From the NCBI GenBank assembly GCA_963805855.1, contig CAWDVW010000007.1:384001-448000 (forward strand): a stretch of 64,000 bases of DNA. The letters are read 5' to 3'. Below, in pieces: positions 1,381 to 6,039 of the stretch. The DNA comes from Candidatus Dadabacteria bacterium (lineage in GTDB: Bacteria; Desulfobacterota_D; UBA1144; Nemesobacterales; CSP1-2). Numbering within the stretch: the stretch's first letter is position 1; the number at the start of each line of letters is the position of its first letter. Below the pieces are notes generated by a model. It made no database searches and was not told the DNA's origin. It worked only from the letters and a program-made list of their open reading frames with translations. The position numbers and the translations under genes are program-made.

Positions 1381-2136
1381 TTAAAAGCTCTTCCAGAAGT
1401 CAATTCCTGCAAGGTCGAGTACCTTCTGACCATATATGTTTAAGTAGAATAGACTGTTTGTCACCATCAGTATTCCAACGGCTACAAGTGTTCCTCCTAC
1501 TATGAACTTGTAGAAACCGTAGTGCCTCTTAATCCAGCCGAAAGCCCCGAGGGCCGTTGAGAGCGCGAGTCCCGTGATTATAAACGGTAAACCCAGTCCC
1601 ACGGAGTACACGAAGAGCAACGCCGCCCCTTTCCCTGCTGCTTCTGTCGTGCTGGCATATAGGAGGATCGATGCAAGTATCGGTCCAACGCAGGGTGTCC
1701 ATCCGAAACCAAACGCGAACCCCAGAAGAAAAGTGCCTATCAGACCGAGATTCCCGTGCGGCAAGTGAAATTTGCGTTCTCTGTAGAGTTGTGGAATTTT
1801 TATTATATCCATTGAGAATAAACCGAACAGTATTATCATTATTCCGGAAATTTTTAGCAGAAGTATTTTGTTTTGTCTTAGAAATACTCCCATATAGGAT
1901 GCGGAAGCGCCTAGTAATACAAATACTACTGAGAAACCGAGTACAAAAAAAATACTGGGGATCAGTATCTTCTTTATTCTATTCTCGGCGGAGCATTCGG
2001 TTAGTTCGTTAAACGATAATTTCGAAACAAGCGATATATAACCGGGAATAAGAGGTAGCACGCATGGAGATAGAAATGATACAACACCCGCGAGAAATGC
2101 AAAAATCCAACTGACCTCTCCAGCCGGAGCCGTCAA
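1381..2136 (-). CDS. ccdA: cytochrome c biogenesis protein CcdA (DsbD-like transmembrane domain)
   Basis: SFLSPCVLPLIPGY and FGWTPCVGPIL motifs; about 6 hydrophobic segments. Confidence 0.93.
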   Translation of the reverse strand: MTAPAGEVSWIFAFLAGVVSFLSPCVLPLIPGYISLVSKLSFNELTECSAENRIKKILIPSIFFVLGFSVVFVLLGASASYMGVFLRQNKILLLKISGIMIILFGLFSMDIIKIPQLYRERKFHLPHGNLGLIGTFLLGFAFGFGWTPCVGPILASILLYASTTEAAGKGAALLFVYSVGLGLPFIITGLALSTALGAFGWIKRHYGFYKFIVGGTLVAVGILMVTNSLFYLNIYGQKVLDLAGIDFWKSF

Positions 2137-2654
2137 TCTGAAATCTCCTTTAGATATTTGATAAAGGTTTTTTCTCCCTCTTCGCCGAGGAACGGACCGT
2201 AGTTCTTTTTGCTGATCTTGCCGTCTTTATCGATAAAGAATGTTGCAGGGAGGGCAACAACTCCGTACGCATTCGACACCTCACCAGAGGGATCGTGTAG
2301 GATCATATACGTGATACCAAAAGCCTCTACAAATTTTTCTGCTAAGCCTTCCTCGTCCATGACGTCGATGCCGATAAAAACAACCCCTTTATCCTTGTAC
2401 TCCTTCCATGTATTCTCAAAAAACGGCATTTCCCTTCGACATGGGGTGCACCACGATGCCCAAAAGTTGAGGACCACCGGCTTTCCCTTGAAATCAGAAA
2501 AGGCTACTTTGCCTTTTCCATTGAGTGGGGGAAGAGCGAAGGTCTTAGCATCCTGCCTGTCACCGCTTGAAGTGGTCTTGGTTTCTCCCCTTTCGCATGA
2601 CCCGATCAGAATAAGAGCGCATAATGTGATCGACAGATATAGCGGATTTCTCAT
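2133..2654 (-). CDS. TlpA/ResA-family thiol-disulfide oxidoreductase (lipoprotein)
   Basis: VLNFWASWCTPCRREMP motif and LIGSC lipobox. ATG 2654 follows AAGGGGG; overlaps the ccdA start. Confidence 0.9.
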   Translation of the reverse strand: MRNPLYLSITLCALILIGSCERGETKTTSSGDRQDAKTFALPPLNGKGKVAFSDFKGKPVVLNFWASWCTPCRREMPFFENTWKEYKDKGVVFIGIDVMDEEGLAEKFVEAFGITYMILHDPSGEVSNAYGVVALPATFFIDKDGKISKKNYGPFLGEEGEKTFIKYLKEISD

Positions 2655-2877
2655 GAAAATCCCCCTTTTGGTTATAATAACTGATAAATACCGTGACATT
2701 AAGTTTCCCCTTTGTTGGCAAAAATTGAGTAAACAATATAAGCTATAATTGCAGATGTTGGAAGTGCAACTAACCGAGCGAGGATAATTTCATACGCAAT
2801 TGTCCGTCTCACTCCGTGATCCATCACTCGCTACGTTTCCATATAAAAGCGGAATAAAAATAACTGAGTTTAATAAC

Positions 2878-3492
2878 TCATTCAACAGATTGTCGAATCT
2901 TTAGAAGGTGGTCGCTGGTTAAATCCTCAACGGTGTCTACGTCTCTTAGCATTTCTAAACACTCGGACTTAATGCCATTGTGTCGCAATCTTTTCATAGT
3001 CTGATCGAATACGAGATTTGTGCTCCAGTCGATCTCATGAAAAACCTCCGGGATCAATCTTCTCAATCCAAGAAGATAATACCCACCATCAAAGGAGGGA
3101 CCTACGACCGCCTCCGACACCTCGAGTTTTTCGAAGGCCTTTACGATCGTCTCTGTTGTGATTTGAGGGCAGTCCGTTCCAATGACGACTGCTTTTGCCG
3201 CTCCGAGTGAGAAGGCATGACTGAAGGCATTGGACATCCTTTCCCCAAGTGAATTCCCTTTCTGTGCCATGAATGATAAGCCATTAAATTTCAGCCAGCG
3301 CACGACATCGTTTGTTCTTTCAGGTGGGTCGAAGAATATAATCTTCCTATAGTCGGCCAATTTCGATAAGTTGTAGATGAGGCTTTCCGCCATCTTTCTG
3401 TATAGCAGAGCGGCATTTTCTGAACCTATATTTTCAGCGAGCCGAGTTTTTACCTTCCCGGGCTCTGGATACTTAACAAATATTAGGAGCAT
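2878..3492 (-). CDS. DUF2064 / TIGR04282-type CofC-like glycosyltransferase (arsenosugar-cluster associated)
   Basis: IFVKYPEPGKVKTRLA, QKGNSLGERM, IGTDCP, GPSFDGGYYLLG, WST and LRDVDT motifs. Confidence 0.88.
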   Translation of the reverse strand: MLLIFVKYPEPGKVKTRLAENIGSENAALLYRKMAESLIYNLSKLADYRKIIFFDPPERTNDVVRWLKFNGLSFMAQKGNSLGERMSNAFSHAFSLGAAKAVVIGTDCPQITTETIVKAFEKLEVSEAVVGPSFDGGYYLLGLRRLIPEVFHEIDWSTNLVFDQTMKRLRHNGIKSECLEMLRDVDTVEDLTSDHLLKIRQSVE

Positions 3493-3516
3493 AGGATTTA
3501 TGTGGCTTTACTTCTG

Positions 3517-6039
3517 CTAACAGCAGGTTCCTCCGTCTACGCAGCATCTATAATCCTCGTTCACCTCTCTCGTAGGATCGGTAATAATAAACATCCCTTC
3601 ATAGGGAGGTTTGGCGAGTTTTTCTGCCGTGTCCGTGCAGATCTCCACGGATTCATTCCGGGGGAACAGATGGCCTTCCTCGTCGGCGATGGCTTTTAGC
3701 GGTCCCAGGTAAATTGCGCTCTGACCGATGAAGACGCATCCTGCGCTCTTTTCGAATTTATAACCCCTCACCGTGATCGAATAAAACCGATGGTTTTCTA
3801 CTGTTTTCCAGTAAATCTTGTTCAGGAGCTGTAGCCCGTAGAACCCTGCCTGTTCCAGGTATGAAATAAACTGCTCCTCCGTTAAAGATCCCGCGATACA
3901 TTCGCCCCAGAGTTCGTCATTTGTCACGATATGTTCCGGGACCTCCCTTTCAGAGATAATATCGGAAAGGACAATTCTTCCGTGATTCTTAAGTATACGC
4001 CACATCTCGGAAAAGACGCGCTTCTTGTTGGGTGAGAGGTTGATCACACAATTGGATGTGATTAAATCTACCGTCTTGTTTACAACGGGTATTTCTTCCA
4101 GGAATCCTCTCCTGAATTCTACGACGTCATAACCGAGATTTTTTGCAACAGTCGGTTTACATTCGTTTGCGATTCCAAGCATCTGATCCGTCATATCGAC
4201 TCCGATTACCCTGCCGTTTTTCCCAACCTTCTTTGCGGCGATAAAGCAATCGATTCCGGCACCGGAGCCGAGATCGACCACGGTCTCGCCCGGCTTTACA
4301 TTCGCAATGCTGATCGGGCTTCCACAGCCGTAGAATCTCTCAATGACATCATTCGGTATATGGCTGATGTCTTCTCCGGGATAGCTTGTTGGGCAGCATA
4401 GCTCCTTCTGAGGCTCCTCGGCTGCCCTTCCGTAGAACTCTCTGACAACTTCGCGCGACTTGTCAATATCAAACGTCAACACACAGTTTGAGTGGGATAA
4501 TTCAATATTGAATTCCGAGATTCCTACTGCCCCGCCATTTCGAATCCCATTTCCATTCATCTCATTCATGCCGCACGAGACAGCGCCTTCGCCCATCGCC
4601 AAAAATACACGGGGTGCATCGAAACCCGATTTATTGTTATGTTCAATTGCCTTTTCTTCGGCAAGCTCTAACAGGGTCCGGACTATCATGTATTCATGAA
4701 GGTCGGAGTAGGGGTCGGCTCCGGCTAGATCCCTTTTGCCGAAAGTGGCTCTGTTGTAAAAATAGGAGTGCTCGATGTCGCCACCCCCGCATATGAATTT
4801 CAAAAAGCAGTTGCTGCACTTTGACCTGTTCTGGACGGTCGCGCCTCTGAACATCTCAAAAACCTTGCTCTCTTCCCATATCTTCTTAAGTGACGTTTCT
4901 TTTATACTTCCTGAGCTTAATTCCTTCGTATTCGCCAGCGCTGCAGAGGGATAAACCTCGCCGTCGGAATAGACGCAGAGGCTGTCCCAGCATGAATTGC
5001 TGAGATCAAACTTCGTGAACTTTCTTGTCCTCAGCTTTGCCCTTATGGTTTCAAAATTATCGACAGTAATGCCAAGCTCGTCCGCGGTTTTCTTAACCTC
5101 TTTCACCACCTCAATCAACTCATATGTGGGAACAACCAGGTTCCTGCCGCCATTCATTATCCTTCCTGTCTGGTGTACCCAGAGCAGGTGATGGTTATTT
5201 ACGCCAAGCCGGGCCAATAGCCTGGTGATATCGGGCACATCTTTGGCATTGTGGGAATTTACGACGGTGGTTACCGTTGGGCTGAGTCCGGCCTTAACGG
5301 CCGACTCGATTCCTTTCGTAATTTTCTCAAAGGTTCCTTCACCCCTGATTGGATCATTTGCATCGGCATTCGAGCCATCGAGGCTGATCTGTGGCTTTAC
5401 GCGACCTCTGCCTGCTTCCAATAGGAGATCAATGTTGTGTCTCTTATTAAAAGACATTCCGTTGGTCAATATTATTAGCTCGGAATATTCATCGCGCGTA
5501 ACATATTCGATCAGCTCGAAGATATCCTTTCTTATGAACGGCTCACCACCGGTAAAGTAAAACCTGAATACACCGAGCTCTCGGCCTTCATCTATTATGC
5601 GTGTTATGCTGTCTGTCGGTAGACCCTTATCTTCCCAGGGTCCGGAGCTTACCAGGCAATGGGCACACTGGAGGTTACAGGAGTTATTGGTGTGTATCCA
5701 AAGCTCGCTTAGCCGGTCGGCCTTCAAGTATTCACCCCGTCCCCTGTAAGGCGCCCTCACAAATGGGTTGAGAGATAAGATCTTTTCCCTCAAAGCATCC
5801 TTTACGAATGTATTGACGTGTACCCAAGCTTTGGTTGTGCTTAACCCGAATTCCTTCGCATATAGTTTTACGATGTCATTGAAATTTCTCTTACCGTCCA
5901 TGTAGCTGAAAATTCTGGCGCCACGGGAATCTGTGCCGATCCAGTTTGGTCCTTCAGGGTCGATCAGGACGTGAAGATCATTCAGATGAATATCTGAGTA
6001 GGGTGGGGCGTGCAGGATTGATTTTTCAGATAAATCCAT
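3517..6039 (-). CDS. fusion: PqqD/RRE-like domain + radical SAM/SPASM + arsenite methyltransferase (ArsM/AS3MT-like)
   Basis: Radical SAM motifs CNLQCAHC and FTGGEP; SPASM-like CSNCFLKFICGGG. ArsM hallmarks VREFYG..LCCP, FYGCGSP, VVDLGSGAGIDC, SNCVINLSPNK, WGECIAG. C-terminal CC...CC. Confidence 0.88.
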   Translation of the reverse strand: MDLSEKSILHAPPYSDIHLNDLHVLIDPEGPNWIGTDSRGARIFSYMDGKRNFNDIVKLYAKEFGLSTTKAWVHVNTFVKDALREKILSLNPFVRAPYRGRGEYLKADRLSELWIHTNNSCNLQCAHCLVSSGPWEDKGLPTDSITRIIDEGRELGVFRFYFTGGEPFIRKDIFELIEYVTRDEYSELIILTNGMSFNKRHNIDLLLEAGRGRVKPQISLDGSNADANDPIRGEGTFEKITKGIESAVKAGLSPTVTTVVNSHNAKDVPDITRLLARLGVNNHHLLWVHQTGRIMNGGRNLVVPTYELIEVVKEVKKTADELGITVDNFETIRAKLRTRKFTKFDLSNSCWDSLCVYSDGEVYPSAALANTKELSSGSIKETSLKKIWEESKVFEMFRGATVQNRSKCSNCFLKFICGGGDIEHSYFYNRATFGKRDLAGADPYSDLHEYMIVRTLLELAEEKAIEHNNKSGFDAPRVFLAMGEGAVSCGMNEMNGNGIRNGGAVGISEFNIELSHSNCVLTFDIDKSREVVREFYGRAAEEPQKELCCPTSYPGEDISHIPNDVIERFYGCGSPISIANVKPGETVVDLGSGAGIDCFIAAKKVGKNGRVIGVDMTDQMLGIANECKPTVAKNLGYDVVEFRRGFLEEIPVVNKTVDLITSNCVINLSPNKKRVFSEMWRILKNHGRIVLSDIISEREVPEHIVTNDELWGECIAGSLTEEQFISYLEQAGFYGLQLLNKIYWKTVENHRFYSITVRGYKFEKSAGCVFIGQSAIYLGPLKAIADEEGHLFPRNESVEICTDTAEKLAKPPYEGMFIITDPTREVNEDYRCCVDGGTCC

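Follow-up and report, generated by a model that had tools for sequence, protein, structure and literature searches.

A stretch of 64,000 nucleotides from Candidatus Dadabacteria bacterium (assembly GCA_963805855.1, contig CAWDVW010000007.1, positions 384,001 to 448,000; hereafter the window) encodes a protein of 840 residues that joins, in one chain, a PqqD-like domain, a radical S-adenosylmethionine (SAM)/SPASM enzyme with a cysteine tail and a long ArsM/AS3MT-type methyltransferase. Based on architecture, conservation, distribution and synteny, from which its chemistry is predicted, this fusion probably acts as a single-chain, non-orthologous replacement for ArsM, AhpD (TIGR04169) and ArsS, making DDMAA (5'-deoxy-5'-dimethylarsinoyl-adenosine) from trivalent dimethylated arsenic (DMA(III)) by way of its cysteine tail. 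The first-pass annotation of this DNA had suspected a different product; the mutual exclusion with ArsS, the shared genomic slot and the shared downstream genes favour the ArsS step instead. Since the fusion is widespread and sits in the usual place of ArsS, many uncultured bacteria probably have a second route to carbon-arsenic bonds.

Evidence for this reading comes from the phylum of the organism itself, sampled in 120 genomes with tallies made by hand from per-gene tables. ArsS was found in 77 genomes, TIGR04282 in 87 and the fusion in 11 (10 intact and one broken). The 87 TIGR04282 carriers comprised 75 genomes with ArsS, 11 with the fusion, one with neither (a partial match) and none with both, and two ArsS genomes had no TIGR04282. 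The gene order in the window is fusion-TIGR04282-tlpA-ccdA-zinc ribbon-malic enzyme; in genome G150 it is arsR-arsM-ahpD-arsS-TIGR04282-tlpA-ccdA-x-malic enzyme and in G068 ahpD-arsS-TIGR04282-tlpA-ccdA-malic enzyme, while in G061 the group arsR-fusion-TIGR04282 lies behind the same HAD gene. The fusion and arsM-ahpD-arsS occupy the same syntenic slot in an orthologous locus, which the tlpA-ccdA flank serves to mark, and arsR-like genes are found immediately upstream in own-phylum loci. The ahpD gene of the ArsS loci belongs to TIGR04169, a family above its cut-off in 75 of the 120 genomes and in only one of the 10 with an intact fusion, where it is unlinked. The context of ArsS (ArsM with TIGR04282/TIGR04283) is likewise that of the fusion.

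What looks like a natural deletion of the radical half, with the swap in progress, was encountered in a single case, unchecked by reads. In genome G053 (L240:7612-8873, G053:C76) a gene for a free ArsM runs from the fusion's first ten codons straight into the H516 region; Arg stands at the position equivalent to C519, and TIGR04169 comes immediately after this gene, at the end of the contig. In the genome with the broken fusion (L239:4612-8163, G062:C126) the fusion, TIGR04282, PHO4 and MerA-like genes lie in pieces with frameshifts, reflecting either a decaying locus or sequencing errors. In families f5 and f7 (e.g., L243, L244) small genomes keep ahpD-arsS-TIGR04282, but a long ArsM is missing from the locus and from the matches above a threshold of 1e-40; these cassettes may use external methylarsenic or another substrate.

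The reality of the fusion was addressed at several levels, and the features of the locus are collected in Table 1. As the first-pass annotation had proposed, the reading frame is free of stops with its motifs in place, a DUF2064/TIGR04282 gene begins exactly 24 nucleotides downstream, and the methyltransferase is of the ArsM/AS3MT type, more precisely the long AS3MT form. Besides the PqqD domain, Pfam matches were obtained for Radical_SAM (residues 118-274), SPASM (350-411) and the class I methyltransferase family Methyltransf_31 (582-732). Among the matches listed, 118 of 120 homologs align over 99-100% of the query length with identities of 52-92%, and the fusion is therefore no assembly artefact. 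A contig from run X1 covers positions 2600-4677 and with them TIGR04282, ArsM and the junction between the domains; it is not an independent confirmation, as the source sample may be X1 itself. In a rough Nei-Gojobori count on one pair (against L001), dN/dS was 0.06-0.12 in all five segments: both halves of the fusion are under purifying selection. The AlphaFold2 model, built with an alignment of 30 rows, had a mean pLDDT of 84.4 and a pTM of 0.80. A scan for promoters and terminators gave no excess over shuffled sequences (4 vs 6.0; 4 vs 3.6), and a search of the ESM Atlas returned matches to generic radical SAM/SPASM clusters only.

Table 1. Features of the fusion locus, in positions of the window
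Feature	Positions	Strand	Basis
840-residue fusion: PqqD-like + radical SAM/SPASM + Cys tail + long ArsM	3517..6039	(-)	Open reading frame, Pfam, NCBIfam, homologs, model
PqqD-like winged-helix domain (RRE-like; RRE, RiPP recognition element), residues 23-87	5779..5973	(-)	PF05402, 24.6 bits vs cut-off 23.4; model alignment to 5WGG from residue 12
CX3CX2C of the radical SAM [4Fe-4S] cluster, CNLQCAHC (C121, C125, C128)	5656..5679	(-)	In 120/121 aligned sequences
Radical SAM barrel, about residues 110-340, conserved H284 and H289	5020..5712	(-)	Pfam, alignment, model
Eroded SPASM domain, residues 350-445	4705..4992	(-)	Cys positions aligned to unfused relatives
Radical-half Cys tail, C489 ... 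H516-S-N-C519, a candidate carrier of As(III)	4477..4578	(-)	C519 in 121/121; inferred role
Long ArsM/AS3MT module, residues 526-840	3520..4464	(-)	CmArsM phmmer, 4FR0 Foldseek, 121/121 conservation
ArsM-half motifs	LCCP 4401-4390, YGCGSP 4332-4315, SNCVIN 4056-4039, WGECIAG 3909-3889, CC..CC tail 3546-3520	(-)	
TIGR04282/DUF2064 CofC-like transferase, 204 residues	2878..3492	(-)	209.9 bits vs cut-off 134 (Pfam DUF2064); 3CGX, E 7e-37
Conserved flank downstream, with genes for a TlpA-like thioredoxin and CcdA	1381..2699	(-)	Pfam, NCBIfam, synteny

The methyltransferase module aligned with CmArsM (phmmer E 1e-39) and with human AS3MT (E 5e-35). Residues C572, C664 and C714 align with C72, C174 and C224 of CmArsM, and the alignment also spans the additional domain that AS3MT-type enzymes have at the C-terminus. 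The pair C548/C549, which we take to be the equivalent of CmArsM C44, is invariant in 121 of 121 aligned sequences, as are C572, C664, C714 and the C-terminal CC. As(III) methyltransferases were among the Foldseek matches of the fusion model (4FR0, E 1.6e-22). In NCBIfam the best matches of the fusion were ArsM models over residues 528-833, all under their cut-offs; a free ArsM adjoining ArsS likewise stays under the cut-off of NF008823 (253 vs 263 bits). In a quick tree, the closest kin of the own-phylum fusion modules were free ArsMs located beside ArsS (13 rows, support 98), a group that is joined by other 840-type fusions (27 rows, support 98); the ArsS-adjacent ArsMs look nested among those of the fusions, and monophyly of the fusions is not rejected (approximately unbiased test, p 0.43). 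The genome of the window contains a separate, canonical arsR-arsM-arsC operon, which is outside the window at a distance of about 28 kb (G000:C7:357854-359563), and the fusion is therefore unlikely to be its main detoxifier. A third ArsM-like gene is located at C5:80860.

The radical half is neither ArsS nor ArsL nor a member of a named maturase family. Its score against the ArsS model TIGR04167 was 51.1 bits (cut-off 300), restricted to model positions 2-147, and a search with this model found no other ArsS in the genome. In a profile comparison the radical half and ArsS shared 151 barrel columns at 20% identity, the alignment ending after the barrel; ArsS sequences scored 41-55 bits against the profile of the fusion family, on a level with the better-scoring of the genome's unrelated radical SAM enzymes (19-71 bits). 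Six ArsS rows formed a branch of their own (support 100, length 4.95), separate from that of the fusions, in a quick tree with an unresolved root, and the DUF3641 C-terminal domain present in an ArsS (L118) is absent from the Pfam matches of the fusion. The RCCLKC tail motif is also absent, and the fusion was not among the five weak matches of the genome to NF040542 (cut-off 450). Among the NCBIfam matches listed for the fusion, no radical SAM model, maturases included, reached its cut-off. Over residues 12-463 the best fold match of the model was 5WGG, a sactipeptide maturase (Z 31.4, rmsd 4.3, 411 aligned residues) that is presumably CteB. Altogether, the TIGR04167 score, the profile comparison, the tree and the fold match agree with the earlier assignment of this domain to the PqqE/SPASM class rather than to ArsS.

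The anatomy of the radical half points away from peptide maturation. In assigning the auxiliary ligands of SPASM, which relied on alignment to unfused relatives and on the usual motif spacing, 13 unfused relatives were found to have Cys at positions 347, 365, 408, 411, 417, 421 and 445. In 76 fusions of the 840-residue type, position 347 is Gly, Ser or Ala, 365 is Ser or Thr and 421 is Asp, never Cys, and the set C408/C411/C417/C445 is complete in 28, reduced to three in five and lost altogether in 43. The fusion of the window, with S347, S365, D421 and S445 and with C408, C411 and C417 kept, is in the three-of-four state. CX3CX2C and H284 are conserved in this type, C489 is kept in 68 of 76 sequences, and C519 in all 73 that are ungapped there as well as in 15/15, 13/13 and 5/5 of other forms. 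No conserved precursor was detected among 759 small open reading frames within 1.5 kb of the 76 fusions, a survey in which unlinked precursors were not searched for; all clusters of small frames were fragments of known neighbors or antisense frames.

These features fit what has been described for related catalysts. Catalysis by ArsS is described as redox-neutral, the arsenic radical giving the electron back to the SAM cluster (PMC13598754), and a reaction of this kind would therefore need no auxiliary cluster. ArsL binds arsenic through a C-terminal Cys motif (10.1101/2024.02.01.577332), as is also stated in a second report (10.64898/2026.04.29.721666), providing a precedent for the C489/C519 tail of the fusion. 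A weak hint on the tail is that the alignment to CTP-bound viperin chains reaches residues 525-527 of the model, and that to shorter viperin chains only residues 389-394. It can be proposed that the ArsM module, given its strong homology, methylates As(III) twice with SAM to yield DMA(III), which the radical half would receive on its C489/C519 tail. The [4Fe-4S] center would then cleave SAM and, as the displacement of ArsS suggests, the 5'-deoxyadenosyl radical would add to arsenic, forming DDMAA. Adenine might subsequently be removed, as described for ArsS, and transferases of the TIGR04282/TIGR04283 type might activate the arsenoribose and pass it on, so that an arsenosugar or an arsenolipid results.

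The last step involves the gene next to the fusion. The DUF2064 family is CofC-like, and among its relatives a single structure has been solved, a structural-genomics entry named 'putative NDP-sugar transferase' (3CGX); glycosylation of, or nucleotidyl transfer to, an arsenical is an unproven candidate role taken from the family label. A complex prediction for the radical half (residues 1-525) and TIGR04282 scored 0.00. The first-pass annotation had correctly reported that a TIGR04283 partner is missing from the window; its notion of a compact pathway was not supported, as homologs of VTT, DUF547, DUF3179 and MerA-like genes and a borderline TIGR04283 are scattered elsewhere in the genome. Genes for TlpA and CcdA were observed downstream of TIGR04282 in both fusion and ArsS loci of the phylum, and TlpA-like genes near 8 of 78 fusion loci; their products are probably periplasmic, only syntenic with the cassette and outside the pathway.

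Beyond the phylum, a genome scan gave at least 774 confirmed stretches, of which 78 loci were kept, mostly from Acidobacteriota (33), Planctomycetota (16), Nitrospirota (8) and Gemmatimonadota (6); the full-length fusion is conserved over about ten phyla. The genomes behind fifty of these loci were searched, those left out being mainly Thermoanaerobaculia and partial loci, and three of the fifty genomes are apparently shared with the own-phylum set. TIGR04282 exceeded its cut-off in 44 and TIGR04283 in 39 of the fifty; here as elsewhere, the genome counts include non-independent kin and incomplete genomes, and no p-value is attached to them. The predicted linkage of homologous fusions to TIGR04282/DUF2064 is thus upheld across phyla (44/50 genomes, and 11/11 own-phylum carriers). 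Approximate counts in the flanks of the 78 loci, obtained by single-query BLAST with author-set thresholds and no overlap filter, were PHO4 41, VTT 17, TIGR04282-like 16, DUF547 14, MerA-like 13, DUF3179 13, TIGR04283-like 11, ArsC 7, ArsR 4, ArsS 0 and AhpD 0.

A second sample comprised 201 genomes from the phylum of G015, with up to four fusion-family candidates scored per genome. ArsS was present in 137 of the 201, in neither of the two carriers of the 840-residue type and in none of the three carriers of a split form. In the latter, HCSCVL forms the C-terminus of the radical enzyme, and the stop of its gene overlaps the start of TIGR04282 (whole gene in two of the three, the third being cut by the end of a contig); all three genomes have a free long ArsM located ahead of VTT and TIGR04283. 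Selenocysteine at the in-frame TGA of the split forms was considered and rejected, the TGA being a true stop that overlaps the TIGR04282 start; the three genomes do have tRNA-Sec. Each half is also known alone, as unfused radical enzymes and free ArsMs occur among the relatives, and unfused radical SAM relatives adjoin TIGR04282 in four of four long metagenome loci (L145, L146, L147, L153).

Other arrangements were observed in the wider family. Proteins of 1000-1080 residues (L204:8013-11144 and about 15 similar loci) combine the radical half and ArsM with a C-terminal DUF5714. A type of 803 residues (L154:7902-11379; L255, L256) has a short ArsM and is followed by a gene for a B12-binding radical SAM protein, with the SPASM cysteines intact in L154; its product is probably different, since G353 and G290, which encode this type, also have ArsS. 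In Chloroflexia proteins P0170-P0188 the radical half is fused to a C-terminal PF01206 domain, which we take to be TusA-like, in place of ArsM. A relative of 270 residues (L200, L209, L214, L216, L218) is convergent on a TIGR04282-like gene, with a gene for a small membrane protein upstream in four of five loci. Matches to TIGR04167 were also found inside open frames of 660-720 residues (G350, G206, G273 and others), where ArsS is fused to another domain.

Several observations weigh against the fusion being a replacement for ArsS. Mutual exclusion attests to a shared cassette role, not to an identical product, and the own-phylum fusions are confined to two families, so that these carriers are kin rather than independent cases; the three split-type genomes are probably close kin too. 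ArsS was above its cut-off in three of the fifty fusion genomes, TIGR04282 was inside the examined flanks in only 16 of 78 loci, and the sole TIGR04283 copy of the genome is borderline (G000:C7:252048, 178 bits vs cut-off 182). Fusions of 803 (G353, G290) and 1056 residues (G365) co-occur with ArsS in three of three genomes, and the wider family is therefore not simply an ArsS substitute. The ArsM module is below the NCBIfam cut-offs for ArsM (238 vs 263, NF008823; 165 vs 400; 199 vs 500, NF040538), and in view of the AU result the order and direction of the swap between ArsS and fusion are not fixed. In G053, ArsS was not found in an assembly that is 85% complete and in which the contig ends at this locus. 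The 270-residue relative, a radical SAM protein devoid of SPASM and Cys tail (Rv1681-like, 308 vs cut-off 380), lies beside TIGR04282-like genes, weakening the claim that the tail is essential. Finally, ArsS and TIGR04282 without a long ArsM are common in the phylum (36 of 37 genomes in family f7), and the substrate of the cassette may therefore be broader than modelled.

An alternative is that the same cassette makes a different organoarsenical, by adenosylation of trivalent monomethylated arsenic (MMA(III)), by an ArsL-like aminocarboxypropyl transfer or as a trimethylated riboside, the downstream transferases accepting this product too. Apart from the shared barrel (151 columns, 20% identity, with ArsS on its own long branch) the scaffold has no relation to ArsS, ArsL is a CX3CX2C enzyme that cleaves SAM differently (10.1101/2024.02.01.577332), ArsS and a fusion are found together in some genomes, and the Scalinduaceae loci have other neighbors (a large GT2, DUF3179, a membrane protein). 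We nevertheless consider this unlikely, as a shared intermediate is the simplest account of a one-for-one replacement at a single locus where ArsM and TIGR04282 stay the same, and the fusion is not among the matches of its genome to the RCCLKC model. It is likewise a tentative idea, which we would not favor at present, that a peptide-maturase scaffold was repurposed, with C489...HxxC519 as a tethered arm moving methylarsenic from ArsM to the radical center, where it would take the place of a peptide; this would be a third class of radical C-As enzyme, making an undescribed organoarsenical, and its hosts (anammox bacteria, Acidobacteriota, Nitrospirota and further uncultured lineages of sediments) would take up arsenate deliberately via the linked PHO4 transporter.

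A cassette that, with either ArsS or the fusion, served mainly a non-arsenic substrate (another metalloid or a phosphorus, sulfur or selenium compound), arsenic being a side activity, is still less probable. The PHO4 neighbor belongs to a phosphate transporter family, small genomes retain ArsS and TIGR04282 without a long ArsM, and the titles and abstract openings of the papers found report no tested function for TIGR04282, TIGR04283, VTT and DUF547. However, the ArsM cysteines are all invariant, and As(III) methyltransferases head the list of structural matches; own-phylum loci have arsR-like genes immediately upstream, arsC is nearby in 7 of 78 loci, and the TGA of the split forms is an ordinary stop and not a selenocysteine codon. 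A maturase of peptides that are ribosomally synthesized and then post-translationally modified (RiPPs), in which the RRE would bind a leader, the SPASM enzyme cross-link and the methyltransferase modify a peptide, possibly with arsenic, would account for the PqqD match and for a best fold match (residues 12-463) to the sactipeptide maturase 5WGG; it is very improbable given that none of the 759 candidate frames near 76 fusions is a conserved short precursor (unlinked ones were not searched for), that fusions never have Cys at 347, 365 or 421 and lack all four AuxII-type Cys in 43 of 76, and that no maturase model reached its cut-off. A chance joining of a detoxifying ArsM to an unrelated radical SAM enzyme, uncoupled from it, is equally improbable even though each half can occur alone, since the fusion is conserved at full length over about ten phyla, split forms retain the same partners, both halves are under purifying selection and a separate detoxification operon is present.

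If the fusion does replace ArsS, it would represent an independent solution to the ArsS step on a different scaffold, assayable as one protein given arsenite and SAM. Surveys that use arsS as a marker would then miss arsenosugar-type producers in anammox Planctomycetota, Acidobacteriota, Nitrospirota, Gemmatimonadota and others, and the ArsM half of the fusion would wrongly be counted among detoxification genes. The versions found in nature (fused, split and swapped) help to delimit the minimal pathway and offer a handle on the unassigned TIGR04282/TIGR04283 steps. A literature search covering titles and abstract openings found no publication on the fusion. New here are the division of TIGR04282 carriers into 75/11/0 at an orthologous locus, the deletion with ahpD in G053, the split form in ArsS-less genomes, the counts of SPASM erosion and the recognition that the 803- and 1050-residue types are not ArsS substitutes.

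The literature found describes radical C-As bond formation for two enzymes, ArsS and ArsL, and both work with ArsM as separate enzymes (PMC8552651, PMC12159101). The fusion has in common with the ArsM and ArsS pair of the Synechocystis type a long ArsM with As-binding cysteines, a radical SAM partner with a C-terminal Cys motif, the cassette genes TIGR04282, TIGR04283, VTT, DUF547 and MerA-like and, in its own phylum, the genomic slot; it differs in being one chain instead of two or three, with no TIGR04169 partner, and in a radical half composed of an RRE and an eroded SPASM, devoid of DUF3641 and on a separate branch. With ArsL and ArsM of the arsinothricin pathway it would share the coupling of ArsM to radical SAM C-As chemistry, as predicted, and the loading of arsenic on a C-terminal Cys tail, shown for ArsL and likely by analogy for the fusion, whereas it has neither RCCLKC nor a match to NF040542, its ArsM scores 199 vs 500, and its neighbors are of the glycosyltransferase type. 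The RRE-SPASM maturases (PqqE, MftC and CteB-type) have the same fold and the same order of RRE, barrel and SPASM; in the fusion, on the other hand, the auxiliary ligands are eroded, no precursor gene is nearby, ArsM is fused and the scores are below the family cut-offs. CmArsM and human AS3MT share with it the C72/C174/C224 equivalents and the C-terminal domain, which in the fusion form part of the C-terminal module of a radical SAM enzyme.

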